DNA of 62,359 nucleotides, counting the filler, from Coriobacteriales bacterium (GTDB taxonomy: Bacteria > Actinomycetota > Coriobacteriia > Coriobacteriales > UBA8131), in assembly GCA_031263105.1 (NCBI GenBank). It is 5 parts of 5 records of this genome, joined end to end, with 100 filler letters (N's around TTAATTAATTAA, not from the genome) between each part and the next. Parts side by side here need not be neighbours in the genome. Positions count along the whole stretch, not along the records: positions 1 to 13,284 come from JAISGJ010000210.1; 4 more parts are not named here. One strand, given 5' to 3'. Positions 1-58,323 of the stretch are shown here, piece after piece. The number at the start of each line of letters is the position of its first letter. The first letter of the stretch is position 1. The position numbers were made by a program, and so were the translations under genes. The notes under the pieces were generated by a model that did not search any database, was not told the DNA's origin, and saw nothing but the letters and a program-made list of their open reading frames with translations.

Positions 1-528
1 GGGTACCTGGAGCTTGAGAACGCCTCTGTCGTGAAGATGGCCAAGCTCCTCGGCGTGTTCACGGCCATCGACCTCTACTTCTTCGCCTGCGACCTGTTGA
101 CCTCCGGGTTTCCCGGCGGGGAGGGCGGCGAGGTGGTCGCGATGCTTGCCGTCGGCCCTCTTGCGCCCTTCTTCTGGGCGGAGCTCGCCTTTGGGGTCGT
201 CACCCTGCTCGTCGCCTTCATGCCCTCGCTGCGAAGGCCGGGGGCTGTCGTAGGGGTGGCCGTGCTTTCCGTGCTGGCAATCCTCTGCAAACGCATACAG
301 CTGCTGATAGGCGGGTTCCAGCAGCCGAACCTCGACTACGCCGCCCTGACGAGCGGCCCTGCGCTCACCGACGCGGGCGCAGGCCTCGCCGGGCTGGCGC
401 CGGCCCTGGTGTACGTCCCCGCACCCTTGGAGCTCGGCATCGTGACGGGCGTGCTGGGACTCGGCGCAGCGCTGCTGCTCGTGGGGCTGCGCGCCCTGCC
501 GCTCAGGGCGACCGCCGCGCCCAAGTAG
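1..528 (+). CDS. NrfD/PsrC-family molybdoenzyme membrane anchor subunit, 5'-partial
   Basis: Frame open from base 1. Multiple TM helices with FW...G and KRxxLLIGG...YVPAPLELGI motifs typical of NrfD C-termini. Confidence 0.75.
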   Translation, partial: GYLELENASVVKMAKLLGVFTAIDLYFFACDLLTSGFPGGEGGEVVAMLAVGPLAPFFWAELAFGVVTLLVAFMPSLRRPGAVVGVAVLSVLAILCKRIQLLIGGFQQPNLDYAALTSGPALTDAGAGLAGLAPALVYVPAPLELGIVTGVLGLGAALLLVGLRALPLRATAAPK

Positions 529-555
529 CCGGTTCGCGCCGATGAGGGGCCTGCG

Positions 556-927
556 ATGAGGAAGCTCGTCCTCACACTTGCTGTGTTCGCCTTGATGGCC
601 GTCCTCGTCTTTATGGCGGGGACGGCTGCCTCGCCCGAGGGCGCAGCGCTGCCCGAACGCATCACCGCAGAGACGGCGTGCCCCGTTGCAGGCTGCACGC
701 AACCGGACGGCAGCTGCCATGCGGCGGCCCCGGCACCCGAGCCGAACGGCAGCTTCGAGATGCTATGCCCCGTGCGCACAGGGTGCGCCGACGTGTCGTG
801 CCACGCCTGGGACAGGATAGGCGCCACGCGCTCCAAACCCATCGACGCCGCCATGAATCTCTGGATACTTGCACCCGTGGTGTTCACGGCTTTTGGCTGT
901 CATTCGTCCTCCAAAAATACAATCTAG
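556..927 (+). CDS. Small exported Cys/His-rich membrane protein, probably 3'-truncated near 890
   Basis: GAGG RBS, signal peptide, two CPVxxC...CH motifs. The C-terminal hydrophobic segment runs abruptly into AT-rich foreign DNA. Confidence 0.55.
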   Translation: MRKLVLTLAVFALMAVLVFMAGTAASPEGAALPERITAETACPVAGCTQPDGSCHAAAPAPEPNGSFEMLCPVRTGCADVSCHAWDRIGATRSKPIDAAMNLWILAPVVFTAFGCHSSSKNTI

Positions 928-970
928 AAAGCTGCATTGCTTGAGATTACAACTTTTAGAATTGCATTGC
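918..970. promoter_or_regulatory. Two candidate repressor operators TACAA-N9-(T/C)TGCA-TTGC, 30 bp apart
   Basis: 918-940 TACAAtctagaaagCTGCATTGC and 948-970 TACAActtttagaaTTGCATTGC; imperfect palindromes upstream of the repressor gene. Confidence 0.5.
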
Positions 971-1058
971 AAGCGATAAATTGGTATTTTTTTCAAAACT
1001 TCTAGGAATTACGTTTTGAATGGTGGTAAGATACACAACAGAAAGGGAGTTGATAGTC

Positions 1059-1691
1059 TTGAAGTACTCAAACAGACTAAGAGAGGCTAGGAAGAAACTA
1101 GGGTTCAACCAAACCGAGATGGGAGAGTTCCTCGGGACGGTCATGCAAAACTATCAGAAATACGAATACGGCGACCGTCAGCTCCGCTCCGATCAAATAG
1201 CAAAGGTGTGTGGGGCTGTAGGCTGCTCGTCCGATTGGCTCATCATGAACGACAGCCTCCCCAAAGGCGCCATCGTCCCCACGCCCGTCGAGACGGTGCC
1301 CGTCCCCGTCTACGGGCGCATAGCGGCCGGGGAGCCCTTGGAGATGTGCGAGCTCGTCGAGGAGGTGGATGCGCCCGTCACGAAGCGCGAGAGGCACCCC
1401 TACGCGTACTTCCTCATCGTCTCGGGCGACAGCATGAACAACGAGATACTGGACGGGCACCTCGCCCTCATAGACCCGAAGGCGGAGGTCAAGAACGGCG
1501 ACACCGTGGCGGTCAACGTAAACGGCTACGACGCGACGCTGAAGGTCTGGCACAGGACGTCCAACAGCGTCATCCTGTCCCCCAACTCCACCAACCCGGA
1601 GCACAGGGACATCGTGATAGACGAGACGAGCCCCGACGCGCCCAACCTGCGCGTCCTGGGCAAGAAGGTATGGGCGATGTACCCGGAGTGA
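1059..1691 (+). CDS. Phage CI/LexA-like repressor (XRE HTH + S24 autopeptidase)
   Basis: RLREARKKLGFNQTEMGE HTH, RIAAG cleavage site, GDSM catalytic Ser, ATLK catalytic Lys. AGGGAG RBS precedes TTG at 1059. Confidence 0.92.
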   Translation: MKYSNRLREARKKLGFNQTEMGEFLGTVMQNYQKYEYGDRQLRSDQIAKVCGAVGCSSDWLIMNDSLPKGAIVPTPVETVPVPVYGRIAAGEPLEMCELVEEVDAPVTKRERHPYAYFLIVSGDSMNNEILDGHLALIDPKAEVKNGDTVAVNVNGYDATLKVWHRTSNSVILSPNSTNPEHRDIVIDETSPDAPNLRVLGKKVWAMYPE

Positions 1692-1743
1692 GGGGGTGGG
1701 GCAGAAGGCAACAGGCCGTAGGCAAGGAGAAAGGGAGCAAGAC

Positions 1744-2421
1744 ATGAACGAGCAGGGACAGTATCCGCAACCGGCGCAGCAGGGACAGCCTTGGCCGCCT
1801 CCGGCGCAGCCCCCGAAGAAGCCGAAAAGGACGCTGCTTATCGTCCTCATAGTGGTCGGTGCCCTTGTCCTGTGCGGGGCAGTCTCGTCGCTGCTCTCGC
1901 CGTCGACGGATGCGTCGAACGGCAGCGACCCGGATGCGAGCAACGAGGCACCGGCGGCGACGCCCGACCCAGAGCCCGATTTGGAACCTGAACCAGAGAC
2001 AGGGCCGGAACCAGAGCCAGAACCCGAACCGGAAGTCGTTGCGGAAACGGAAGAAGAGTATAAGGCCAAGTGCGAGGAGATTGCCTATACGGACATCATG
2101 AGAAGCCCGGCGTCCTTCGACGGGAAATATGTCGTTTTCACCGGCCGCATCGTCCAGACCGTCAACACCGACCATCTGTTCGGCGACACAGAGTACGGAT
2201 TCAGGGCCTATACGGCAAAAGATGACTATCTCGACGACTACTACGAAGACGCGGTCTATATGTCCTATGTCTACGGCGACGGCGAGCCGCTGTTTCTTGA
2301 GGATGACATCGTGACCGCCTACGGAGTCTGCAAGGGAACCGTCGAGTACGAGACCGTTTTAGGCGATAAGGCAAGCGTCCCGAACATCGAGGCGAAGTAC
2401 ATCGTCCTACAAGGGCAGTAG
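1744..2421 (+). CDS. Membrane-anchored protein with Pro/Glu linker and OB-fold-like (TcdC-like) domain
   Basis: Single TM, (EP)n linker, YTDIMRSPASFDGKYVVFTGRIVQ...EDDIVTAYG motifs. Confidence 0.6.
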   Translation: MNEQGQYPQPAQQGQPWPPPAQPPKKPKRTLLIVLIVVGALVLCGAVSSLLSPSTDASNGSDPDASNEAPAATPDPEPDLEPEPETGPEPEPEPEPEVVAETEEEYKAKCEEIAYTDIMRSPASFDGKYVVFTGRIVQTVNTDHLFGDTEYGFRAYTAKDDYLDDYYEDAVYMSYVYGDGEPLFLEDDIVTAYGVCKGTVEYETVLGDKASVPNIEAKYIVLQGQ

Positions 2422-2490
2422 CCCCGGGGCCGCAGCGGGCGAGGGGGAGGGGGCGCGGAGGGGCCGGAAGGCGGAGAAGAGAGAGGGAGA

Positions 2491-2886
2491 ATGGGCGAGA
2501 AGGACTACGGCAGGTGGATGCCCGTCAAGGCGGGGATACACAACGCCCCGCACCGTCTCATCGGGTACAAGGAGCGCGACATCTGGATATGCAGCCTCGG
2601 AGAGAACATAGGGTTCGAGGAGGACGGGAAAGGCGGCGGGTTCCGTCGCCCGGTGCTTGTCCTGAAGATCTACAACAAGGCGTTCTGCCACGTCGTCCCC
2701 TTGTCCACGACGGACAGGCGGGGCGCCTACTACCACCCGTTCGACGGGCACACGGGAAAGACCAGCGTGGCGCTCCTGAGCCAGTCGAGGGCGGTGGACT
2801 CGGCAAGGCTGAGGCAGAAGGTCGGGTATGCGTCGGAGGGGGACTTCGCCGAGATAAAGCGGAGGCTCATGGAGATCCTGGGCTAG
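2491..2886 (+). CDS. PemK/MazF-family endoribonuclease toxin, no protein antitoxin adjacent
   Basis: IWICSLGENIGFEEDGK...RPVLVLK...VVPLST...SQSRAVDSARL motifs; GGGAGA RBS. Confidence 0.85.
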   Translation: MGEKDYGRWMPVKAGIHNAPHRLIGYKERDIWICSLGENIGFEEDGKGGGFRRPVLVLKIYNKAFCHVVPLSTTDRRGAYYHPFDGHTGKTSVALLSQSRAVDSARLRQKVGYASEGDFAEIKRRLMEILG

Positions 2887-2937
2887 AGAAAGTTCGCCCC
2901 CGCCGAGGCGGGGGCAGTATCCCGAAGGAATTTGTAC
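2886..2937 (-). ncRNA. Candidate ~50-nt small RNA convergent with the mazF-like gene
   Basis: Lies downstream of a near-consensus minus-strand promoter. Folds into UCC-UUCG-GGA and an 8-bp GC stem (2896-2915) followed by GAACUUUCUCU. Confidence 0.55.
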
Positions 2938-2941
2938 GAGG

Positions 2942-2971
2942 ATTGTAGCACGGGAGCGGGGGGCGTGTCAA
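2942..2971 (-). promoter_or_regulatory. Sigma70-type promoter TTGACA-N18-TACAAT with TG extended -10
   Basis: Plus-strand TGTCAA 2966-2971 and ATTGTA 2942-2947, in otherwise very GC-rich DNA. Confidence 0.7.
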
Positions 2972-3034
2972 AGCACACGCACGCCCATGCACGCCCATGC
3001 ACGCCGGCGGACGACAGGAAGGGAGCGGCACGCG

Positions 3035-4123
3035 ATGTCCATACAGGAGTACGCCGACAAGGCGGGGCGGACGCGCTGGCGCGCGCACCTGGAGGTGGGC
3101 AGGCGCCTCGACGGCACGCCGGACCGGCGGTCGAAGGTGTGCGACACGCTCAAGGAGGCGCAGCGGGCGGAGCGGGGGCTCTACATCGTCAGGGACGGGC
3201 TCGCGGGGCGCTCGGACAGGGACACGTTCGGGGCCTACGTCGCCGAGCACTACCTCCCGGCGAAGCGCAGGGAGCTCCGGGGGCTGACCGTCAGGGGGTA
3301 CGAGAGCGTCATCGACAACCACCTCCTGCCCACGCTGGGCGGCCACAGGATGGGCGAGATAAACCGCGCCGTGGTGCAGTCCCTGATCACGGGCCGCAGC
3401 AGCAACAAGGTGGCGAGGAACGCCCGCGACGTCCTGCGGCAGATACTGGGGCACGCCTGCGACAACGGCGTGATCAGGTCGAACCCTGCGGCGGGGAGGT
3501 TCAACTTCCCGGCGAGGGCCGCGACCGACCGCGACAACTCGGGCGCGGTCGTCACCGACCTCTCCGAGCACCGCCGCATCATACGGCTCGCCCGCGACGG
3601 CGGCGAGCCCGTCCTGCCCGTGCTCGTGCTGGGGCTCTGCCTCGGGATGCGCAAGGAGGAGGTGCTGGGCACGGACTGCTCCCACGTGGACCTCGGGGCA
3701 CGGAGGCTCGACGTGCGGCAGTCCTACCTCCACGTGGGCGGGCAGGACAGGCTCGAGCGCCTGAAGAACGAGCACTCGTACCGGACGCTGCCCGTGCCCG
3801 CCCTGGCGCTCGAGCACCTCGCGCCGCTCTGCAGGGACCGGGTCGGCCCCGTGTGCGTCCACAGGGGGCAGCGCATGACGCAGCACCAGGCGCAGAAGCT
3901 CATGCGGGGGTTCGTGGAGAGGCACGGCCTGCCCCGGCTCACCTGCCAGTCGCTCAGGCACTCGTTCGCCACGGCCGCCCTGAAGGCGGGGGTGCCGGTC
4001 GAGCTGGTGTCGAGGATGCTGGGGCACAGCTCCATCACCACCACCTACAACCGCTACGTCAGGCCCACGAAGGACGACGTCATGCAGGTCGCAGAGATGC
4101 TCGACAAGGCGTCCGGCATATGA
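3035..4123 (+). CDS. Tyrosine recombinase/integrase
   Basis: N-terminal arm-binding and SAM-like regions, GMRKEE (R), SLRHSFAT, LGHSSITTTYNRY (H, Y). Confidence 0.95.
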   Translation: MSIQEYADKAGRTRWRAHLEVGRRLDGTPDRRSKVCDTLKEAQRAERGLYIVRDGLAGRSDRDTFGAYVAEHYLPAKRRELRGLTVRGYESVIDNHLLPTLGGHRMGEINRAVVQSLITGRSSNKVARNARDVLRQILGHACDNGVIRSNPAAGRFNFPARAATDRDNSGAVVTDLSEHRRIIRLARDGGEPVLPVLVLGLCLGMRKEEVLGTDCSHVDLGARRLDVRQSYLHVGGQDRLERLKNEHSYRTLPVPALALEHLAPLCRDRVGPVCVHRGQRMTQHQAQKLMRGFVERHGLPRLTCQSLRHSFATAALKAGVPVELVSRMLGHSSITTTYNRYVRPTKDDVMQVAEMLDKASGI

Positions 4124-4228
4124 CGGATAATCTGCCGCATCTATTCACTTTCATGCATAAGGGGGACTGCCCCGGAAAGCCGCTTTGCACATCCGATGCA
4201 CATCGCAACCTGTCTGAGCAGGTGAAGT

Positions 4229-4314
4229 TGGTGTCGGCGGAGGGATTTGAACCCTCACGTCCATTCGGACACTAGCCCCTCAAGCTAGCGCGTCTGCCGT
4301 TCCGCCACGCCGAC
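4229..4314 (-). tRNA. tRNA-Leu(GAG)
   Basis: GTCGGCG/CGCCGAC acceptor stem + ACCA, anticodon arm CTAGC-TTGAGGG-GCTAG, long variable arm, GGTTCAAATCC T-loop. Downstream of secG, as in the secG-leuU arrangement. Confidence 0.97.
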
Positions 4315-4398
4315 ATCTAAACTCTGCGGCCCAGGGCTGCCCAGCCGCCATGCAATCTGCCCTGTAAGAAACATGATCCAACCGCTCCTTCGCCGCAG

Positions 4399-4653
4399 CT
4401 ATGAGGCGATCGAACCCTGGGGGTAAAGCAACATCAAAACGAGGAGGGTGACGAAGAACACGGCCGCGAACACGACGGTGATGCGGTCGAGGTTCTTCTC
4501 CACCAGGCTCGTGCCGGTCGTGTTGTTGTACACGGAGCCTGCGATGATGTCCGAAAGGCCCGTTCCCTTGCCGGAATGGAGCAGCACGAACAGGATCAAT
4601 CCGACACCGGATATGAACCAGATCACGAGCAGGGCTATCAGAAGCGGACTCAA
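4399..4653 (-). CDS. secG: Preprotein translocase subunit SecG
   Basis: Two TMs, VLLHSGKGTGLS and EKNLDRIT motifs. Confidence 0.95.
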   Translation of the reverse strand: MSPLLIALLVIWFISGVGLILFVLLHSGKGTGLSDIIAGSVYNNTTGTSLVEKNLDRITVVFAAVFFVTLLVLMLLYPQGSIAS

Positions 4654-4722
4654 GGTATCACCCTTCCATCAAAAACATGCGGACATGTATGGTACTACAA
4701 ACAGCCCTGACAGGTAAAGGGG

Positions 4723-6039
4723 TCAATACGCCACGGGAAACTCGTCGCCGAACACATCGAGGGCAAGGGTGACGAGAGAGTCGCGTGAGAGCCCCTTAGG
4801 CGCCAGCATATGCTCCTGTGCAAGGTCGTCGGTGTAGTCCCTGAGCAGGTAGGCCTTGTAGCCATGCCAGCCTGGAAGTATCTGGGTCACCGTCGGTCGT
4901 ATCTCGACGTCCTCAAAGGAAAGGCTGCCGTCTACGTCATCGAGACGAATGGTCCATGACGCCATCTCGCCCAACATGCGCTCCGGCTCGTCCTGCGCGG
5001 AGATGAAGTTGCCGAGCGAGTAGATCACCAGGGTCTGGTTGCCCTGCCCGCCCGTTATCATCGTGGTGGGCTGTATCACGTGAGGGTGCGCACCGATGAC
5101 GACATCGACGCCCAGGTCGCTCAGGAAGTACGCAAGCTCGACCTGTCCGTCGCTCGGCACGTGGCTGTACTCGTCGCCCCAGTGCATGCTCACGATCTGC
5201 ACATCGCTGAGCTGCACAAGGCGCTCGACATCCTGTACGATCCTCGGGGTGTCGATGAGGTCGACGAGGTACTCCCCGCCCTCCGGCAGGACAAAGCCGT
5301 TGAGTCCGTAGGTATAGCTCGCCAGACCTATCAGGACTCCGTTCGCCTCGATGACGGTCGGCTGCTGCGCGTCGTCCCACGAGCGATGGGTCCCGGTCTC
5401 GGTCAGGCCGGGGAGGGTGTCGAGGTGCGCAAGCTGCGACCGTATCCCCGCCTCGCCCACATCGAACGAATGGTTGCTGGCCGTGTTTATCCAGTCGAAG
5501 CCCGCCGCCTGCACCGCGTCGAGAATCTCGAAGGGGCTGTTGAAGCAGGGGTAGTCCGCCAAGCCCAGCCCGGTGCCGCCGCAGACGGTCTCCTGATTGA
5601 GGTAGGCCACGTCGGCCTCTTGGACGGTGGCAGCAACGGAGTCGTACATATCGTCGAAGCTGTAGGCGCCGTCTCCCGTCGCATGGCTTTTGTAGATGGA
5701 TGCGTGGATAAGGTTGTCGCCGACGGCGATGAAGCTCACCGTCTTGTGCCGCGTGTCCGACACGGCGTCTTGGGCAGCGCCCTGAGCCGCATCCTGCGCA
5801 GACGCCGCATCGTGCTGAGTGAGCGCGGCCCCCTCGTCGAAGGCGGTTGCCTTGCCTGCCTCGCCCGCATTGTCCGCGAGGCTGAGGCTGTCTGGGTCCT
5901 GGAACGGAGCAGTGCAGGCAACGAGAAGCAGCAGCACCGTGAGCGCCGCCAGCACGGACGCCGCCCGCCGCGCGACAAGGCGGCTCTGCCGCATGCCCCC
6001 GCTCCCCCGCCAAGCGCCCCCTGTACACCTCATGCCCAT
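4723..6039 (-). CDS. CapA-family (PGA_cap) metallophosphoesterase lipoprotein
   Basis: AVGDNLIH, NQET, ASNHSFD, SMHWGDEY, IGAHPHV, YSLGNF motifs; LLVAC lipobox. Start codon uncertain. Confidence 0.9.
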   Translation of the reverse strand: MGMRCTGGAWRGSGGMRQSRLVARRAASVLAALTVLLLLVACTAPFQDPDSLSLADNAGEAGKATAFDEGAALTQHDAASAQDAAQGAAQDAVSDTRHKTVSFIAVGDNLIHASIYKSHATGDGAYSFDDMYDSVAATVQEADVAYLNQETVCGGTGLGLADYPCFNSPFEILDAVQAAGFDWINTASNHSFDVGEAGIRSQLAHLDTLPGLTETGTHRSWDDAQQPTVIEANGVLIGLASYTYGLNGFVLPEGGEYLVDLIDTPRIVQDVERLVQLSDVQIVSMHWGDEYSHVPSDGQVELAYFLSDLGVDVVIGAHPHVIQPTTMITGGQGNQTLVIYSLGNFISAQDEPERMLGEMASWTIRLDDVDGSLSFEDVEIRPTVTQILPGWHGYKAYLLRDYTDDLAQEHMLAPKGLSRDSLVTLALDVFGDEFPVAY

Positions 6040-6278
6040 GCGCCCGCCGTTCTCTCCCTTGTATACTTGACGTGACGATGTGACGATTATACCGCATGGG
6101 AAACCCTTAATATTTCGCCAAGACTTCCATAAGGAAAAGTGACGAGAAACGGCATGGATATTCCACGGGCAGGCCCCTAGACTGGGAGGCTGTGCGGCAC
6201 CTGTGCGGCATGGTCTGTGCACCATGACCTGTGCGACAGGGCCCCATCGGCAGGAGGAACCGAACGAGAGGAGAAGCA

Positions 6279-8918
6279 ATGAGTCCCGATACATCCACGG
6301 CATCACCTTCAGCGCCAGGTATCGATCGGCGCTCCTTTGTCGCCTGGTGCGGCATCCTGGGAGCGGGAGTGGGAGCGGGCGCGGCCTTGAGCGCCTGTAC
6401 GCCCAGCACTGCCCCGAAGGACGGGGAGGAGGACGAGGGAGCGACCGTGCGCGCGTTCGACTACGACACGGTCACGTGGTCGGGCTGCCACGTGAACTGC
6501 GGCAGCCGCTGTCCCCTCAAGGTGTTCGTCAAGGACGGCACCGTCGTCCGCATAGGAAACGACAACGACGGCACGGACGGCTTCGGCCCCGGCGAGCTGT
6601 CGCAGATGCGCTCCTGCGTGCGCGGGCGCACCAACCGTCAGCGCATCTACAACGAGACCCGCGTCCAGAAGCCCCTGCGCCGCGTCGAGGGGACCAAGCG
6701 CGGAGAGGGCAAGTACGAGGAGATCACGTGGGAGGAGGCCATCGCAGACATCGCAAAGACGATGACCGAGATAAAGGAGGAGTACGGCAACGACGCCTTC
6801 TACATCCAGTACGGCACCGGGCAGCTGGGCGGCACCGTCGCGAAGTCGTGGCACCCCGACTCCACGATGTTCGCCCGCCTGATGAACCTTTGGGGCGGCT
6901 ACCTGCGCATGTACTGCGACTACTCGACCGGGCAGATCACCTGGGAGCTTCCTTTGCTCAACGGAGACGCCTGGTCGAACAACGAGGTCACCGACCTCGT
7001 GAACTCCAAGAACATCGTGCTGTTCGGCAACAACCCCGCGAACACGCGCATGAGCGGCTCGGCCATGGTCTACCTCCTCACGCAGGTGCGCCTGCAGAAC
7101 CCCGACGCGCGCATCGTCGTGGTCGACCCGCACCTCTCGGACACCGCCGTGGGCGTGGCGAACCAGTGGGTGCCCATCCGGCCCGGAACCGACATGGCGC
7201 TCGTCTCCGGCATGCTCCATCACCTCCTCAGCTCCGGCAAGCTCGACGAGGCCTTCATCCGTGAGAAGTGCATCGGCTTTTACAGCGACACCTTCGTCGA
7301 GGAGATAAAGCAGGGAGAGCCCCAGGCGCCCACCTTCATGGGGCTCGACACGTCCGGCACCCTCGCCATCACCGAGGACATGTCCTACGAGGCCTACCTC
7401 AGAGGGAGCGGCGCCTACGAAGGCAGCGGCGAGAAGACCCCCGAGTGGGCGGCGGCCATCACCGGCGTCTCCGCAGACGTCATCCGCGGGCTCGCCGACC
7501 TCTACGTCGACGGCCCCACCGCGACCATCCAAGGCTGGGGCCCCCAGCGCCACAGCAACGGCGGCAACAACACCCGGGCGATCGGCCTTATCGCCACGCT
7601 CACCGGCAACGTCGGCATCAGCGGCGGCGGCACCGGTGCGCGGGAGGGCACGGGCGGCGTCTCCTACGCCGTCTCCACGGCGCTCGACTGCTTCCCCGAG
7701 AAGAACACCGTCGAGACCCAGGTCTCGTTCTTCGACTGGTACCAGGCCATCGAGGACTACCGGTCCATGAGCGACACCACCTGGGGCGTGCGCTGGGCAG
7801 GCAAGGACCACGAGTATGCGGAGACCCCCGGCGAGATCACGCTGAAGGCCCCCATCAAGTTCATCTGGAACTATGCCTCCAACGTGATGCTCGGGCAGCA
7901 CGCGGACCTCAACGACTCCCTGCGCATCTACAACCTGCCTGACGAGAAGGAGAGCGGCCTGCGCATGGTCGTGACCGTCGACTGCTATCTGACGCCCACC
8001 GCCCTGGTCTCCGACATCATCCTGCCGGGCACCACCTCCTTCGAGGAGGACGACATCATCACGGGCGGCGGCGGCTGGACCGGCTTCGTGTGCTGCGAGA
8101 GCGCCGCCATCCCGCCGCTGTTCGAGTCGAAGCCCGTGTACGAGATATGCACGCTCCTCGCGGAGCAGCTGGGAATCAAGGACGAGTTCACCGAGGGCAA
8201 GACGCAGCTCGACTGGGTGCAGTGGTGCTACGAGCAGGGCATCGCCGGCGGGGACGAGCTGCCCGCCACCTTCGAGGAGTTCCGTTCGCAGGGGCTCTTC
8301 AAGCAGACCGACACCCACACGCCGGCCGTCGCCACGCACGAGGAGATCGCCACGCCGTCCGGCAAGTACGAGGTCTTCTCGAAGCAGGCATACAACCTCT
8401 CGAAGCAGTGGGACGTCACGGGCGGCGGCTACATCCCCGCCGACGGCCTCGACCAGATAACCGGGCTGCCCATCTATTACGAGAACTTCGAGGGCTTCGG
8501 CGACAGCGCGACCCGGGCGGAGTACCCCTTCCAGCTGATCGGCCACCACGTCAAGACGCGCACGCACTCCTCGTATGGGAACGTCGAGTGGCTGAAGTCC
8601 GTCGCCCCCCAGCAGTGCTGGATAAACGACGGCGACGCCGCAGCCCTGGGTGTTGAGAACGGCGACGACCTCCTCGTCTCGACCAGGCGCGGCAAGACGC
8701 GCATCTCTGCCAAGGTGACCCCGCGCATCATGCCGGGCGTCGTGTCGATCCCGCAGGGCGCATGGTACGAGCCCGAGAGCCGCGACGCTGCCAGCATCGG
8801 CAGCAAGGACGTCCTCGACACGGGCGGCTGCATATCGGTGCTCACCTCGTCACGCCCGACGCCCCTCTCGAAGGGCAACGGCGTCCACTCAAACCTCTGC
8901 AAGATCGAGAAGGCATAA
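6279..8918 (+). CDS. dmsA: DmsA/YnfE-family molybdopterin oxidoreductase catalytic subunit (Tat lipoprotein)
   Basis: DRRSF Tat motif, ALSAC lipobox, CHVNCGSRC Fe-S motif, DYS Mo-ligand serine, RTHSSYGN. Confidence 0.9.
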   Translation: MSPDTSTASPSAPGIDRRSFVAWCGILGAGVGAGAALSACTPSTAPKDGEEDEGATVRAFDYDTVTWSGCHVNCGSRCPLKVFVKDGTVVRIGNDNDGTDGFGPGELSQMRSCVRGRTNRQRIYNETRVQKPLRRVEGTKRGEGKYEEITWEEAIADIAKTMTEIKEEYGNDAFYIQYGTGQLGGTVAKSWHPDSTMFARLMNLWGGYLRMYCDYSTGQITWELPLLNGDAWSNNEVTDLVNSKNIVLFGNNPANTRMSGSAMVYLLTQVRLQNPDARIVVVDPHLSDTAVGVANQWVPIRPGTDMALVSGMLHHLLSSGKLDEAFIREKCIGFYSDTFVEEIKQGEPQAPTFMGLDTSGTLAITEDMSYEAYLRGSGAYEGSGEKTPEWAAAITGVSADVIRGLADLYVDGPTATIQGWGPQRHSNGGNNTRAIGLIATLTGNVGISGGGTGAREGTGGVSYAVSTALDCFPEKNTVETQVSFFDWYQAIEDYRSMSDTTWGVRWAGKDHEYAETPGEITLKAPIKFIWNYASNVMLGQHADLNDSLRIYNLPDEKESGLRMVVTVDCYLTPTALVSDIILPGTTSFEEDDIITGGGGWTGFVCCESAAIPPLFESKPVYEICTLLAEQLGIKDEFTEGKTQLDWVQWCYEQGIAGGDELPATFEEFRSQGLFKQTDTHTPAVATHEEIATPSGKYEVFSKQAYNLSKQWDVTGGGYIPADGLDQITGLPIYYENFEGFGDSATRAEYPFQLIGHHVKTRTHSSYGNVEWLKSVAPQQCWINDGDAAALGVENGDDLLVSTRRGKTRISAKVTPRIMPGVVSIPQGAWYEPESRDAASIGSKDVLDTGGCISVLTSSRPTPLSKGNGVHSNLCKIEKA

Positions 8919-8929
8919 GGAGGCGCCTG

Positions 8930-9538
8930 ATGGAACAGTACGGATTCTATGTGAACACCGAGATATGCACCGGCTGCAAGGCCTGCATGACCGCCTGCTT
9001 CGACCGCAACGACCTGGAGGTTCCCCAGAAGTTCCGCAAGGTCTACGAGTTCGGCGGCGGCGCCTGGGAGCAGGGCGCGGACGGCAGCTTTGCCACTACC
9101 GCGTTCACCTACTACGCCTCCCTCACCTGCTGCCACTGCGACACGCCCGCCTGCGTGGCCAAATGCCCCACCGGCGCCATGCTGAAGAACACGGAGACGG
9201 GCATCGTCAGCATCGACAAGGAGATATGCATCGGCTGCATGACCTGCGAGACGAGCTGCCCCTACAACCATCCCGTCAAGCTGGAAGACAACCTCGCACA
9301 TAAGTGCGTCCTTTGTAGCGACGAGAACGACGAGGGGATACCGGATCCGGTCTGCGCCCTTGCGTGTCCCGTCCGTGCCCTGGAGTTCGGCCTGATGGAG
9401 GATCTGCGCTCGAAGTACGGCGACAACGTGAAGATCGGCGATTTGGGGGACACGACCTCCCCCAACGTCGTCATAGGCCTCCACCGCGATGCCAGCAAGG
9501 GCGGCAAGCGCCTCAACCCGCTCGAGACAAGCCACTGA
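8930..9538 (+). CDS. dmsB: DmsB-like 4Fe-4S dicluster electron-transfer subunit
   Basis: CTGCKAC...C, CCHCDTPAC...CP, CIGCMTC...CPY, KCVLC...CP clusters. Confidence 0.92.
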   Translation: MEQYGFYVNTEICTGCKACMTACFDRNDLEVPQKFRKVYEFGGGAWEQGADGSFATTAFTYYASLTCCHCDTPACVAKCPTGAMLKNTETGIVSIDKEICIGCMTCETSCPYNHPVKLEDNLAHKCVLCSDENDEGIPDPVCALACPVRALEFGLMEDLRSKYGDNVKIGDLGDTTSPNVVIGLHRDASKGGKRLNPLETSH

Positions 9539-9552
9539 CCTTGGGCCTGTCG

Positions 9553-10368
9553 ATGGAGACGGCGAAGGCCTGTCAGGTGCTCTGCGCCTTCTGTTCCCGC
9601 CTGCTATACGAGAGTCCCAGCACCTCTTGGGCAGGGCAGCTGCGCGAGCAGCGCGCCCTGCTTTTGGAGGAGCCGTTCTCGTCCGTCGCGCCGACGGCAG
9701 CAGGCGAGCTCGAGCGCCTGCTTGCCGGGGCGGGCGCGGGCGGCGGGGCGGCGGGCGGCGGGGCTGAGAGCAGCGCGGTGGCAGGCGGCGCGGTGGCAGG
9801 CGGCTGTGCCGGGGGCGAGGCGGGCGGGGCAGATGCTGCCCCTGCGGGCGGCGGGGCGGCGGGCGGCAAGGATGGCGTGAGCGACACCTTCCTCACCGCC
9901 ATCCATCAGGACCACACCTACCTGTTCTACCTCGTGAGCATCAGCCACACCTCGCCGTATGAGTCGGTCTATCGGACGGAGACGCGCGAGATGTTCGGGC
10001 CCACCACACTGGAGGTCCGCGAGCAGTACCGCGAGCAGGGCCTTGCCGTCTCCGCCGAAGGCTCCCTGCCCGACGACCACATCGGCCTCGAGCTCGACTT
10101 CCTGGGACGGCTGTTCGCACGCCTGGCGCAGGAGGCGGAAGCAGGCGACCACGCGGCCGCAGACGCAACCGAAGATACGATCCGCCGCTTCCTGGGCGAG
10201 CACCTGCTCGTGTTCGCGCCCACATACCTCCGCAATCTCCAGGAACGCGCACGAACCCCTTGGTACCGCGCGACAGGCGCACTGACCCAAGCCGTCATCG
10301 ACCTGCTCGCCCGGCAGATGGATGCACAGGCGACCGATGCCCCGGTGGGCGGGGCACCTGCCGACTGA
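9553..10368 (+). CDS. dmsD: TorD/DmsD-family chaperone with a Gly/Ala-rich insert
   Basis: SPYESVY and LPDDHIGLELDFL signature motifs. Confidence 0.88.
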   Translation: METAKACQVLCAFCSRLLYESPSTSWAGQLREQRALLLEEPFSSVAPTAAGELERLLAGAGAGGGAAGGGAESSAVAGGAVAGGCAGGEAGGADAAPAGGGAAGGKDGVSDTFLTAIHQDHTYLFYLVSISHTSPYESVYRTETREMFGPTTLEVREQYREQGLAVSAEGSLPDDHIGLELDFLGRLFARLAQEAEAGDHAAADATEDTIRRFLGEHLLVFAPTYLRNLQERARTPWYRATGALTQAVIDLLARQMDAQATDAPVGGAPAD

Positions 10369-10414
10369 ACCCCACGGGCCGCAGCTACGACCGCACCGCA
10401 GCACCTCAGCTCCC

Positions 10415-10611
10415 ACTGTCATTCCGAGCGCAGCGAAGCGGAGCCGAGGAATCTTCGACTGCCTTGCAGTCGACTGCGGTTTTGGGGATTCCTCGGCCTG
10501 CGGTCGGCTGCTTCGCGTTCCGCGGGCCTGTCGGCCCGTTCTCGCTGAAAACGCGCTGCGTTTTCCGGGCGCTCGAACCCGAAGATCCCTCGGCAGGCTC
10601 GGGATGACAGT
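10415..10611. repeat. Inverted TGTC/CGTC-type REP doublet
   Basis: ACTGTCATTCCGAGC...GAGGAATCT and AGATCCCTCGGCAGGCTCGGGATGACAGT ends. Confidence 0.85.
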
Positions 10612-10668
10612 ACCGTCCCCCTTGCCACGCCGTCCCTGCCCCAGTCCACAGAACGTGAAGGAGAACAC

Positions 10669-12006
10669 ATGATGCGTACAGACAAGACGATGCGAGCCGG
10701 AGGGCGCGGGGCATGGGGGAGAGGGGCGGCGATGGGGCTGGCCGCACTTCTCCTCATCTTCCTTATGGGGCTTGTGGTGCCCCGGACGGCCCTTGGCATA
10801 CCGGAGGGCGGGGCGAGCGCCGACACGCCGGGCACCTATGCCGAGGTCTCGCCCAAGGAGCTGAGGCCGGGGGCGACCATCCAGTTTGCGGTCTCGGGGT
10901 ATCCGGCCGGTGAGGTGCTCAACGTCAAGATCGACGACGGGCTTGGGTACAGCGACCAGACGCAGGAGGGCACCGGCGTGATACATACGCAGGTCATCGG
11001 GGCGGACGGCTCGACCTCCGGCTCGCTGAAACTGCCGAGCGACGTTGCGGAGGGTTGGCATTGGCTGCGCTTCCTGGCTTCCGAGGTGGTTGAGGGCAAG
11101 GGCGTTTTGGGCTATACCAACGGGGCGGGCGCCGCCTCGAACACCGAGCATCCCACGGCGTTCCAGGTCGTCGGCGAGACCTTGGGAGGGGCGACTGCGG
11201 CCGAGAGCGTCGTCGAGGGGTCGTCGCCGAGTCTGGACGATGCGGGCACGGGCACGGGCGGCAGCTCGGGAGGCGCGGGCACGGGGAGCACCACGGGTGG
11301 TTCGAGCGGCGGCACGGGCGGCGGCACGGGCGGCACGGGTGACGGCTCGGGCGGCACGGCGACCGGCGGCACGGGGAGCGGCAGTACCACCGGCGGCACG
11401 GCGACCGGCGGCACGGGGAGCGGCACGGAGACCGGCGGCACCACCGGCACCACCGGCGACGGCTCGGGCGGCACGGCGGGCGCTGCGGGCGGCACGGGCA
11501 GCGCTGCGGGCGGCGGCACCGGCACGGGCACCGACGGCGGCGCGCTGGGCGACGACGGGGAGCCCATGACCGAGGAGGAGGCCGCAGCCGCAGCCGACGC
11601 TGCGCTCCTGAACAAGAACGCGCAGGGCGCTGCGCAGAGCACGGCGGGCAGCCGCATGCTGGGCAACAGTGCCGACTCCACAGGCGCAGGCACCGCCGGT
11701 GCCTTTGGCGGCCTGCCGATTCCCGGCCTCATCACGCTCGGCGCCGCCGTGCTTCTGGGGGTCGCCGCGCTGCTCTTCGTGACGCTGAAGAAGCCCCGGC
11801 CCGTTGCGGCCGTTGCGGCGGCAGGTGTCGGAGCGGCGGGGGCGACCTTGGGCAACGGGGCGTCGGGGACGCCGCCCCCTGCGGCCCCCGCGCCCGCAAC
11901 GGTGCCTGCGGCCGCGCCCGCCGCGCCCGCCCCCACCGCCCCCGAGGCCGCCCCCGCCCCCGACGCTCCGCCGCCTGCCGAGGCCCCGCCCGCTCCGCCC
12001 GCATGA
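10669..12006 (+). CDS. Cell-surface protein: signal peptide, beta-rich domain, Gly/Thr linker, C-terminal TM and Pro/Ala tail; probably iron/heme-uptake associated
   Basis: GAAGGAG RBS; architecture read from the translation; ATGA-coupled to the FecCD permease. Confidence 0.6.
   Translation: MMRTDKTMRAGGRGAWGRGAAMGLAALLLIFLMGLVVPRTALGIPEGGASADTPGTYAEVSPKELRPGATIQFAVSGYPAGEVLNVKIDDGLGYSDQTQEGTGVIHTQVIGADGSTSGSLKLPSDVAEGWHWLRFLASEVVEGKGVLGYTNGAGAASNTEHPTAFQVVGETLGGATAAESVVEGSSPSLDDAGTGTGGSSGGAGTGSTTGGSSGGTGGGTGGTGDGSGGTATGGTGSGSTTGGTATGGTGSGTETGGTTGTTGDGSGGTAGAAGGTGSAAGGGTGTGTDGGALGDDGEPMTEEEAAAAADAALLNKNAQGAAQSTAGSRMLGNSADSTGAGTAGAFGGLPIPGLITLGAAVLLGVAALLFVTLKKPRPVAAVAAAGVGAAGATLGNGASGTPPPAAPAPATVPAAAPAAPAPTAPEAAPAPDAPPPAEAPPAPPA
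11851..11884 (-). repeat. GTAG-type REP copy inside a CDS
   Basis: 34 nt with 2 mismatches to 32708-32741. Confidence 0.75.
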
Positions 12007-13067
12007 GCACGGGTTCCGCCAGCGCAGGTTCCGCCAGCGTCGCCCGCACCCCACGGCTGCCGCTCAGGAGGAGCGCCCGAATCCGATGGGCCGCACTTGT
12101 CGCCACCTGCGGCGTCCTGCTCCTTGCCGTCCTGCTCAGCCTGTCGCTGGGCTCGAAGGACATCCCGCTCGGGCAGACCTGGGCGCTGCTGCTTGCCCCC
12201 GACGGCTCCACGGACAGCACGGTGCTGCACGAGCTGCGGGTGCCGCGCACCTTTATGGCGCTCGTCTGCGGCGCCGCCCTCGGCGTGGCGGGCGCGCTCA
12301 TGCAGTCCCTGACGCGCAACCCCCTGGCCGACCCCGGCATCCTCGGCATCAATGCGGGCGCGAGCCTGGCCGTGGTGCTCTCGGTCGCTCTTATCGGCAT
12401 AGGCTCCATCTTCGTCTACCTGTGGTTCGCCTTCCTGGGCGCCGCCGCCGCCTCGCTCGCCGTCTACCTGCTCGGTGCCGCAGGCAGGCAGTCCGCCACC
12501 CCCACGAGGCTGGCGTTGGCAGGCGTGGCGATAAGCGCGGCGCTCTCGGCGCTCACAGAGGCGGTGGTGCTTGCGGACCAGGCCGTGTTCAACGAGTTTC
12601 GGCTCTGGGTCGCAGGCTCGCTCGAAGGGCGCTCCTTCGACATCCTCCTCGTCGTGCTGCCCTTCGTCGCCGGCGGGCTTTTGCTTGCGCTCCTGCTCGC
12701 CCCTTCGCTCAACGCGCTTGCCCTTGGTATGGAGAAGGGGCGCTCGCTCGGCGTCAACGTCAGGCGCGTGCAGGTGCTCACGATGGTCGCCGTGACGCTG
12801 CTCGCCGGCTCGGCCACCGCAGCGATAGGCCCGGTGGGCTTCGTCGGGTTGGCGGTGCCGTTTCTGGCGCGCGGCCTTGTGGGCTCCGACCAGCGCTGGG
12901 TGACGGCCCTCAGCATCCTTCTGGGCGCGGCCTGGCTCCTGTGCGCCGACGTGATTGCCCGCATCGTCGTGCGGCCCGAGGAGGTGCAGGTCGGCATCGT
13001 CGCCGCACTGCTCGGGGCCCCCTTCTTCGTCGCGCTCGTGCGTCGCAGGAAGATACCGGCGCTATGA
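12003..13067 (+). CDS. FecCD-family iron-siderophore/heme ABC permease
   Basis: LRVPRT, GALMQSLTRNPLADPGILGINAGA, GPVGFVGLAVP, LLGAPFF. Confidence 0.95.
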   Translation: MSTGSASAGSASVARTPRLPLRRSARIRWAALVATCGVLLLAVLLSLSLGSKDIPLGQTWALLLAPDGSTDSTVLHELRVPRTFMALVCGAALGVAGALMQSLTRNPLADPGILGINAGASLAVVLSVALIGIGSIFVYLWFAFLGAAAASLAVYLLGAAGRQSATPTRLALAGVAISAALSALTEAVVLADQAVFNEFRLWVAGSLEGRSFDILLVVLPFVAGGLLLALLLAPSLNALALGMEKGRSLGVNVRRVQVLTMVAVTLLAGSATAAIGPVGFVGLAVPFLARGLVGSDQRWVTALSILLGAAWLLCADVIARIVVRPEEVQVGIVAALLGAPFFVALVRRRKIPAL

Positions 13068-13091
13068 GGGGCGACGTGCGTCAGGGGGGCG

Positions 13092-13190
13092 GTGACAGGA
13101 GGGACGGCACGGTTCGTGACAGTGGGGACGGCACTGTTCCGTCGCGGCCCGCGCATGAGTGTGACAGTGGGGACGGTACTGTTCTGTCAC
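13092..13190. repeat. Cluster of GTGACAG(T)GGGGACGG..CTGTCAC REP-like hairpins
   Basis: Three GTGACAG..GGGACGG units; a related half copy lies at 10607-10620. Confidence 0.6.
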
Positions 13191-13284
13191 GGCCCCCCTG
13201 ACGCACGTCGCCCCTCATAGCGCCGGTATCTTCCTGCGACGCACGAGCGCGACGAAGAAGGGGGCCCCGAGCAGTGCGGCGACG

Positions 13285-13384
13285 NNNNNNNNNNNNNNNN
13301 NNNNNNNNNNNNNNNNNNNNNNNNNNNNTTAATTAATTAANNNNNNNNNNNNNNNNNNNNNNNNNNNNNNNNNNNNNNNNNNNN
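13285..13384. other. Artificial contig linker
   Basis: N run - TTAATTAATTAA - N run. Confidence 0.99.
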
Positions 13385-34993: not shown

Positions 34994-35093
34994 NNNNNNN
35001 NNNNNNNNNNNNNNNNNNNNNNNNNNNNNNNNNNNNNTTAATTAATTAANNNNNNNNNNNNNNNNNNNNNNNNNNNNNNNNNNNNNNNNNNNN
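34994..35093. other. Artificial contig linker
   Basis: N run - TTAATTAATTAA - N run. Confidence 0.99.
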
Positions 35094-40650: not shown

Positions 40651-40750
40651 NNNNNNNNNNNNNNNNNNNNNNNNNNNNNNNNNNNNNNNNNNNNTTAATT
40701 AATTAANNNNNNNNNNNNNNNNNNNNNNNNNNNNNNNNNNNNNNNNNNNN
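40651..40750. other. Artificial contig linker
   Basis: N run - TTAATTAATTAA - N run. Confidence 0.99.
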
Positions 40751-58223: not shown

Positions 58224-58323
58224 NNNNNNNNNNNNNNNNNNNNNNNNNNNNNNNNNNNNNNNNNNNNTTAATTAATTAANNNNNNNNNNNNNNNNNNNNN
58301 NNNNNNNNNNNNNNNNNNNNNNN
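58224..58323. other. Artificial contig linker
   Basis: N run - TTAATTAATTAA - N run. Confidence 0.99.

Follow-up and report, generated by a model that had tools for sequence, protein, structure and literature searches.

A convergent small RNA gene recurs beside a branch of PemK/MazF toxin genes in bacteria and archaea and is a candidate RNA antitoxin

We describe a toxin gene and a small RNA (sRNA) gene that face each other in DNA from a Coriobacteriales bacterium (GenBank assembly GCA_031263105.1). The window, i.e., the whole stretch of DNA that was analysed, is 62,359 nt long and comes from a draft genome of 250 contigs that is 86% complete; positions 1-13284 are the contig bearing the finding, and runs of N at 13285-13384, 34994-35093, 40651-40750, and 58224-58323 separate the parts of the window from each other. 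The sequencing runs listed for it are DNA runs from a single termite-gut study, with no RNA run among them. In this contig, a gene for a PemK/MazF-subfamily toxin is abutted at its stop codon by a convergent, minus-strand unit with its own promoter and two predicted RNA hairpins. Judged by comparative sequence analysis, this unit is a real, conserved sRNA gene tied to the PemK subfamily. The RNA is probably the toxin's antidote, and we read it in this way because of its exclusive linkage to the toxin gene, the lack of a protein partner, the strong promoter of the RNA, and the intact catalytic positions of the toxin. Our preferred interpretation, to which we assign a probability of only about 0.4, is that toxin and convergent RNA form a self-contained module in which the toxin would recognise the RNA directly.

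Results

The toxin gene and predicted sRNA in the window

An earlier sequence-only reading of this DNA had described an intact MazF-like open reading frame (ORF) behind a purine-rich spacer of 69 nt, with no antitoxin ORF on either side, facing a near-perfect extended -10 promoter (TTGACA-N18-TACAAT) and a structured transcript of about 50 nt that ends at the toxin stop codon. All of these features were found where it had placed them. The ORF matches Pfam PF02452 (E 4.2e-14), and the purine-rich 69 nt separate it from the upstream ORF at 1696-2421. No antitoxin-like ORF lies on either side of it in the window, where a membrane-type protein and a tyrosine integrase are encoded instead, and none was found among 137 flanking ORFs of relatives. 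The minus-strand promoter scores 11/12 and is the sole promoter-like site in 900-4700, for which shuffled sequences gave a mean of 0.5. The transcript predicted from it reads, in order, ACAAAU, UCC-UUCG-GGA (hairpin P1), UACU, GCCCCCGC-CUCG-GCGGGGGC (hairpin P2), and GAACUUUCUCU, with 4 nt between the two hairpins; it extends into the stop codon of the toxin gene (2884-2886). Its predicted fold has a free energy of -24.4 kcal/mol (z = -3.3), and 1 of 200 shuffled sequences was equally stable.

The window copy shows all the marks of the family defined below, namely position, strand, promoter spacing, 5' motif, and two hairpins. With filters off, the best match of our covariance model, R1, within the 13.3-kb contig is at 2936-2891 (11.7 bits, E 0.19), and for the RNA of the paralogous module G000:C174, which lies in the same genome, R1 gives 15.8 bits (E 0.015). 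The score of the window copy is low because R1 was trained on copies from the Candidate Phyla Radiation (CPR). Searches against Rfam 15 returned no relevant match at E <= 5 in the window, and ten loci from CPR bacteria, DPANN archaea, and other bacteria gave none at E <= 1. In the Coriobacteriia/Clostridia group the 3' tail resembles AACUUUUU, and in most CPR loci it is A-rich; this difference between groups makes the 3' end of the RNA uncertain.

Recurrence beside homologous toxin genes

One genome per species was scanned, which yielded at least 601 matching stretches and at least 499 confirmed relatives, and the best 80 of these relatives were analysed. They come mostly from CPR/Patescibacteria and DPANN archaea, and also from Coriobacteriales, Verrucomicrobiales, Eubacteriales, Deinococcus, and Sulfurimonas. 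When the 150 nt after each toxin stop were read, a convergent RNA unit abutting the stop was present in 79 of the 80 loci, with L043 as the sole exception; the sequence-only reading had named an antisense promoter, ACAAAU, and a UUCG stem conserved 3' of homologues as the pattern to look for, and the outcome was positive. The recurrent unit consists of a promoter, (U)ACAAAU, P1 (usually with a UUCG loop), a spacer, a variable P2, and a tail that reaches the complement of the stop codon. The spacer between P1 and P2 measures 2-3 nt in most copies and 0-4 nt in all but one. Because it recurs in this manner downstream of homologous toxins, the window element is more than a chance arrangement.

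The linkage was also visible in searches that did not begin from a toxin gene. An exact pattern taken from the Coriobacteriia copies, with 20 specified bases, had four matches in 596 Gb, against about one expected by chance (our own estimate), and each lay just 3' of a PemK-subfamily gene. Two of the four toxins, from Nomurabacteria and Saccharibacteria, are 33-38% identical to the window toxin. Across five CPR genomes (3.7 Mb), R1 gave six matches at E <= 0.01, all six of which abut one of 9 toxin genes, with none elsewhere; each of these 0.6-0.9 Mb genomes carries 1-2 copies. Direct alignment showed that two other genomes of the window organism's family also retain the element, and toxin identity reaches 63% between the Coriobacteriia source genome and DPANN archaea.

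Structure, covariation, and strand of the RNA

R1 was built from ten CPR copies and is therefore CPR-biased. At E <= 1 it produced 69 matches across 85 sources, comprising 61 primary elements, 2 in L089/L092, and 6 extra ones, and it missed 19 of the 80 primary elements. Of the extra matches, three stand behind a further gene of the PemK subfamily (hmmsearch E 5e-37 to 9e-52) and two are duplicates of the RNA alone; the one in L055 is unclear. In the R1 alignment, 99.3% of cells pair, compared with 78% in shuffles and at most 72% in slid controls. Nine of the ten pairs change on both sides (2/3 in P1 and 7/7 model pairs in P2), and compensatory cells number 107, compared with 26 in shuffles. 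P2 did not align with MAFFT. The sequences were also folded individually: P1 forms at least 3 bp in 84/84 sequences, with 17 distinct hairpin sequences, and P2 at least 4 bp in 82/84, with 69 distinct sequences and a median P2-region z of -3.9.

Across phyla and domains, primary sequence is kept only in the single-stranded 5' end and P1, and P2 varies freely. Within the 5' motif of the 84 sequences, A4 is invariant and A2, A5, and A6 are each conserved in at least 90%. We read the RNA on the minus strand because stable tetraloops appear on that strand: minimum free energy folds place UNCG loops in 54/84 first hairpins and GNRA loops in 44/66 second hairpins, whereas on the plus strand 1 of 150 of the same loops is GNRA or UNCG.

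Several side observations concern copies of the module. Second toxin-RNA modules occur at L028:2338-2815, L054:4101-4545, and L062:2228-2711, between a few hundred and about 1,100 nt away from the first, and RNA-only tandem duplicates, which have their own promoter and no toxin, occur at L042:3486-3528 and L069:3595-3637. At about 1580-1960 in the reoriented locus L091 (genome G019, Coriobacteriia), the toxin match falls into three different reading frames; the toxin gene looks decayed and the -35 box degraded, while P1 and P2 of the RNA are intact. A small subgroup whose RNA begins with UAUAC (L046, L064, L070, L080, and L054:4514-4545) has a P2 of 9 bp.

Promoters in bacteria and archaea

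Among the 76 bacterial loci, a sigma-70 promoter scoring at least 9/12 was found at the expected place in 66, compared with 3% of shuffles. TTGAC stands at the matching -35 place in 62 of the 76, and the distance between the -10 box and the A of ACAAAU is exactly 6 nt in 62/76. In the DPANN loci, a TATA box (TTTAAA or TATAAA) occurs exactly 21 nt upstream of the same A in 8/8. The spacing is thus fixed in both domains, from which we conclude that selection kept transcription starting from that A.

On the toxin side, the 70 nt upstream of the start codons in the 80 loci were inspected by eye. In many CPR loci a -10-like box, often with TG, ends 6-10 nt ahead of the ATG, and in DPANN loci a TATA box lies about 25 nt ahead of it. 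These boxes suggest that the toxin mRNAs of many CPR and DPANN loci are leaderless, with no room for an upstream partner. Two other roles for the RNA were considered and set aside. In CPR loci the plus-strand U-tract precedes the hairpin rather than following it, and P2 as a bidirectional terminator was ruled out for these loci, the U-tract being on the wrong side for both strands. Pairing in trans with the 5' region of the toxin mRNA was rejected because many CPR and DPANN toxin genes look leaderless and the purine-rich leader is genome-specific; a match between the CU-tail and the window leader, seen by eye, is missing in the paralogue, which also counts against trans pairing.

The toxin protein

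PF02452 (PemK_toxin) was the only Pfam family matched by the toxin ORF (53.1 bits, cut-off 23.1), and no NCBIfam or PADLOC model matched it. A profile of the subfamily matched solved MazF proteins in the PDB at E about 7e-5, and a profile search retrieved at least 1,694 clusters (50% identity) at E <= 1e-10. In 20 homologues R53, P54, and S72 are invariant and T74 is nearly so; these residues align to HRP and CTT of Escherichia coli MazF, in which the catalytic-loop Arg and the Ser/Thr after strand 3 are Arg29 and Thr52. An AlphaFold2 model of the toxin had a mean confidence (pLDDT) of 79.2, and every match listed for it by Foldseek was a MazF-family chain (probability 1.0, TM 0.60-0.75), with no ToxN entry among the matches listed. 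The subfamily is marked by an N-terminal extension (helix, residues 6-17) and an invariant G-x-N-x-GFE-x-DG...RP loop, and both this helix and the conserved acidic loop GFE(E/Q)DG are features that classical MazF proteins lack. On the alignment and the model, the toxin looks like an active MazF-fold endoribonuclease with its catalytic positions intact.

Missing protein antitoxin and gene neighbourhoods

When 774 ORFs located no more than 700 nt from the 76 called toxin ORFs were compared with one another by BLAST, no recurrent neighbour emerged: no cluster had more than four members, and none occupied a fixed position. Pfam searches of the 137 flanking ORFs likewise detected no MazE, AbrB, ribbon-helix-helix, or other antitoxin family. 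The view that this subfamily lacks a protein antitoxin is therefore supported by the gene neighbourhoods.

In most relatives the module sits between housekeeping genes, per the same Pfam searches. In three of the CPR loci L027, L033, L056, and L079 it lies between atpG and atpD, and in the fourth (L079) beside atpG; in L039 it lies between dnaK and dnaJ, and uvrB, ribosomal protein, and tRNA synthetase genes flank others. With the atpG/atpD and dnaK/dnaJ placements, the module sits within gene sets that normally form operons. Just downstream of the module in the nearest relative among the Coriobacteriales (L004:2071-3054) comes a gene for a MazG-family pyrophosphohydrolase. A mazEFG arrangement exists in E. 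coli, which this neighbour recalls, though it may be coincidence. In L010:1-2073, an intein that includes a LAGLIDADG domain is present in the EF-Tu-type archaeal GTPase encoded beside the module.

An sRNA at a homologous locus of Campylobacter jejuni

A tblastn search against plasmids retrieved relatives of the toxin in 15 Campylobacter, Helicobacter, and Nitratiruptor records, including plasmid pVir of C. jejuni 81-176. The pVir homologue (old tag pVir0047, NC_008770.1 30634-31038) is 35% identical over residues 6-106 (E 2e-9), keeps the N-terminal and loop motifs of the subfamily, and has no annotated protein antitoxin. On the minus strand of pVir, 3' of the toxin gene, there is an extended -10 box, TGATATAAT, from which a start at 31119 was predicted by the spacing rule. 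The published start of the sRNA CJpv3 is this same position: Table S12 of Dugar et al. 2013 (PMC3656092) gives CJpv3, detected by differential RNA sequencing and Northern blot, as 77 nt on the minus strand of pVir at 31119-31043. The homologous module therefore makes a convergent sRNA, and the rule used to place the start held.

CJpv3 ends 5 nt past the toxin stop (gene end 31038) and does not overlap the coding region. It resembles the window RNA in being convergent, in having its own extended -10 promoter, and in ending at the toxin stop; it differs in having three hairpins and in lacking the UUCG-P1 signature. The arrangement is convergent and abutting in each of the four Campylobacterota plasmid loci examined, where each RNA has its own promoter, folds into two or three hairpins, and reaches as far as the toxin stop codon.

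Genome setting of the window copy

The features of the locus are collected in Table 1. A second copy of the module in the same genome (G000:C174, locus L086) shares 75% nucleotide identity over 2413-2981, and its gene order (membrane protein, toxin, RNA, integrase) is that of the window. The similarity between the copies starts at 2413 and ends about 10 nt beyond the -35 box. The leader is about 95% identical between the two copies, though their toxin proteins are only 56-57% identical, which points to gene conversion or a constrained leader; no conservation of this G/A-rich leader was seen in other genomes. At 2979-3005, between the -35 box and the integrase start, a 10-nt unit (consensus GCACGCCCAT) is repeated perfectly in direct orientation, in 2.7 copies; this repeat could be an operator or a recombinase-binding site for the divergent promoters; it is missing from the second genomic copy.

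Table 1. Features of the toxin-RNA locus, in positions of the window
Feature	Position	Strand	Basis or remark
-35 box TTGACA	2966-2971	-	18 nt before the -10 element
Extended -10 box TGC-TACAAT	2942-2950	-	Promoter scan
Predicted transcription start, A of ACAAAU	2935	-	Inferred, 6 nt after the -10 box
Predicted small RNA, about 49 nt	2887-2935	-	Covariance model R1 and alignment to the paralogue and two other Coriobacteriia
Single-stranded 5' motif ACAAAU	2930-2935	-	Best conserved part of the RNA
Hairpin P1, UCC-UUCG-GGA	2920-2929	-	At least 3 bp in 84/84 sequences
Hairpin P2, 8-9 bp, loop CUCG	2895-2916	-	Flagged terminator-like by scan here
Pyrimidine/U-rich 3' tail overlapping the complement of the toxin stop codon	2885-2894	-	Sequence reading
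PemK/MazF-subfamily toxin, 131 aa, N-terminal extension, conserved GENIGFEEDGKG...RPVL loop	2491-2886	+	Pfam PF02452
G/A-rich leader of the toxin gene including ribosome-binding region	2413-2490	+	About 95% identical to second genomic copy G000:C174
Membrane-type protein, 241 aa	1696-2421	+	Directly upstream of the toxin gene
Helix-turn-helix + Peptidase_S24 (LexA/CI-like) repressor	1020-1691	+	Pfam PF00717, PF01381
Tyrosine integrase	3035-4123	+	Pfam PF00589; divergent from the small-RNA promoter
tRNA-Leu(GAG)	4229-4314	-	ARAGORN and Rfam tRNA; secG comes after

The local setting, which spans at most about 3.3 kb, holds the S24/helix-turn-helix repressor, the membrane protein, and the integrase beside tRNA-Leu(GAG), which is the likely integration target. 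A direct repeat of the tRNA-Leu end, as expected of an att repeat, was sought in 1-1150 and none was found, and the 137 flanking ORFs of relatives gave no sign, by Pfam, of a conserved partnership between the S24/helix-turn-helix repressor and the module. Two contextual claims of the sequence-only reading were not supported. It had placed the locus in a prophage lysogeny region, for which we found the repressor and integrase within this short setting and no att repeat, the remainder of the contig not having been scanned for phage genes. It had also proposed a defence module, for which there was no PADLOC match and no homologue in 50,697 phage records.

Discussion

How the RNA might neutralise the toxin

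In the mechanism that we favour, the toxin would be a MazF-fold endoribonuclease and its antitoxin the convergent sRNA, made in excess from a near-consensus promoter. The toxin would recognise the RNA directly through the single-stranded 5' ACAAAU. The enzyme MazF-Da is described in PMC8634880 as cleaving U^ACAAA, and the 5' motif (U)ACAAAU of the RNA matches this site. The RNA would thus begin at the nucleotide just after the scissile bond of a U^ACAAA-like site; lacking the upstream 2'-OH, it could not be cleaved and might occupy the active site as a mimic of the product or a pseudosubstrate. Presentation of the motif would fall to the UUCG-capped P1, and stabilisation or termination of the RNA to P2; the convergent position would probably add antisense or transcriptional interference on the toxin mRNA. 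Direct recognition is favoured because the sequence of the 5' end and P1 is conserved, while antisense complementarity needs no such conservation, and because the motif equals the MazF-Da site. Direct inhibition and antisense control may also operate together.

Extended to the whole branch, the proposal is that these MazF proteins (no fewer than 1,694 clusters at the 50% identity level, and the form usually present in CPR and DPANN) are neutralised by a single-copy, primary-transcript RNA whose pppACAAAU end mimics the 3' cleavage product, which would make a new cross-domain class bridging types II and III of toxin-antitoxin (TA) systems. We put this forward as a possibility against which the odds still lie.

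Several observations weigh against direct recognition. The Campylobacterota sRNAs, CJpv3 included, are without the ACAAAU motif and give no R1 match, and in the subgroup of L046, L064, L070, and L080 the RNA begins with UAUAC directly before P1 and not with UACAAAU. The covariation counts rest on a model-fitted alignment and on related sequences. No tandem-repeat array was found upstream of or abutting the toxin by Tandem Repeats Finder (1600-3400), unlike in type III systems. The strictly convergent, abutting layout would be unneeded for an RNA that purely binds protein and points to a cis-antisense role, and since an A-rich tract, not a U-tract, follows P2 in most CPR loci, the RNA may run antisense into the toxin gene. 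Finally, the report on CjrA, considered next, would favour antisense control if CjrA/CjpT were the locus of the pVir homologue.

Alternative explanations

The main competitor to direct recognition is a type I-like antisense arrangement, in which the RNA would pair with the 3' end or 3' untranslated region of a toxin mRNA reading through P2 and P1, leading to cleavage or decay of the duplex and to transcription collision, with no contact between RNA and protein. The layout speaks for it, being convergent and abutting in 79/80 loci and in the four Campylobacterota plasmid loci, as does the lack of a canonical terminator at P2 on either strand in most CPR loci, where sense and antisense transcripts should overlap. 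Convergent type I systems with 3' overlaps offer precedents as well (bsrG/SR4, txpA/RatA, and par RNA I/RNA II). CJpv3 adjoins the pVir homologue, and CjrA, an antisense sRNA on the same plasmid, is called an experimentally validated type I RNA antitoxin in PMC7826846 and PMC10470494, which cite Shen et al. 2016; CjrA/CjpT may possibly be this locus. Complementarity, however, is automatic in such a layout, and so cannot explain why ACAAAU and P1 are kept from Coriobacteriia to CPR and DPANN while P2 drifts; moreover, the toxin is a soluble MazF-fold protein of 131 aa and not a small hydrophobic peptide, and CJpv3 stops 5 nt beyond the toxin stop without overlapping the coding region. On balance we regard purely antisense control as unlikely, though a serious competitor.

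Neutralisation itself would be beside the point if the RNA served the protein for some other purpose, as partner, substrate, or regulator (for instance as a target for processing, a cofactor, or a sensor), while the protein itself was kept harmless by its N-terminal helix or by low leaderless expression. The conserved N-terminal extension and the acidic loop lacking in classical MazF are compatible with such a role, and so is the presence of 1-2 copies per genome between housekeeping genes in five small CPR genomes. We consider it improbable, as the MazF catalytic positions are kept, and as the patchy spread across domains, with up to 63% identity between Coriobacteriia and DPANN, the second modules (L028, L054, and L062), the plasmid homologues, and the split toxin match of G019 suit a selfish, mobile TA module better than they would a ribonucleoprotein with a housekeeping role. 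That there is no RNA gene at all, the hairpins being stem-loops or a terminator at the 3' end of the toxin mRNA and the promoter match a coincidence, is hardly credible. P2 does occupy the place directly behind the stop codon in which one would look for a terminator; the promoter, however, is fixed in spacing in 66/76 bacterial loci and replaced by a TATA box in 8/8 archaeal ones, stable tetraloops form on the minus strand only, the plus-strand U-tract of CPR loci comes before the hairpin, and experiment has revealed an sRNA from the minus strand of the homologous locus on pVir (PMC3656092, the table quoted above).

Comparison with known toxin-antitoxin systems

The toxin shares its family, its fold, and its catalytic-loop positions with those of the type II MazEF/PemIK systems, and published MazF specificities (ACA, UACAU, and UACAAA type) resemble the 5' motif of the RNA. 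Type II modules carry a MazE/PemI gene, however, and none occurs near the toxin in the loci examined here.

The RNA of ToxIN contains the site at which its toxin cuts and remains bound as the product. The likeness to type III systems (ToxIN, CptIN, and TenpIN) lies in the pairing of a protein endoribonuclease with an RNA, here with a putative antitoxin role. The RNA of type III systems is an upstream tandem-repeat array in the same operon, whereas here it is single-copy, downstream, convergent, and under its own promoter; the repeat architecture of type III antitoxins is treated in PMC8860590. The toxins differ as well, type III having ToxN/AbiQ, CptN, and TenpN and the present protein being PemK_toxin only by Pfam and MazF by fold.

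The type I systems bsrG/SR4, txpA/RatA, and par RNA I/RNA II have convergent, 3'-overlapping antisense RNAs. As in these, an antisense RNA gene abuts the toxin gene (79/80 loci), and a small RNA with a strong promoter ends at, or shares the stem-loop of, the 3' end of the toxin mRNA. Type I toxins are small hydrophobic membrane peptides (below about 60 aa), whereas the present toxin is an RNase-fold protein of 131 aa, and the RNAs of these systems are not known to be conserved in sequence across phyla, whereas the 5' motif described here is kept across domains. The "pemK RNA motif", an Rfam family, is also a structured RNA that occurs with PemK-family genes; the window element, in contrast, matches no Rfam family.

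What the finding means

RNA antitoxins as such are already known, and so is the published sRNA at one homologous locus. What appears to be undescribed is a large MazF branch with a convergent structured RNA, the 5' motif and two hairpins of that RNA, its dominance in CPR and DPANN, and the exchange of its promoter. In the literature searched, which left subscription journals largely outside, we found no description of the RNA family or of its link to MazF beyond pVir.

To our knowledge, MazF/PemK proteins are textbook type II toxins that are always paired with a protein antitoxin. A deeply conserved MazF branch paired with a structured RNA would blur the lines between TA types I, II, and III, and it adds an RNA family that is absent from Rfam. 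A sequence-specific RNase with an encoded RNA inhibitor of about 50 nt could also be a useful tool. We know of few regulatory RNAs or TA systems described for CPR bacteria and DPANN archaea, in whose genomes this module is abundant and recognisable. The switch from bacterial to archaeal promoter around an unchanged RNA would clearly illustrate how a selfish module can adapt to both domains.

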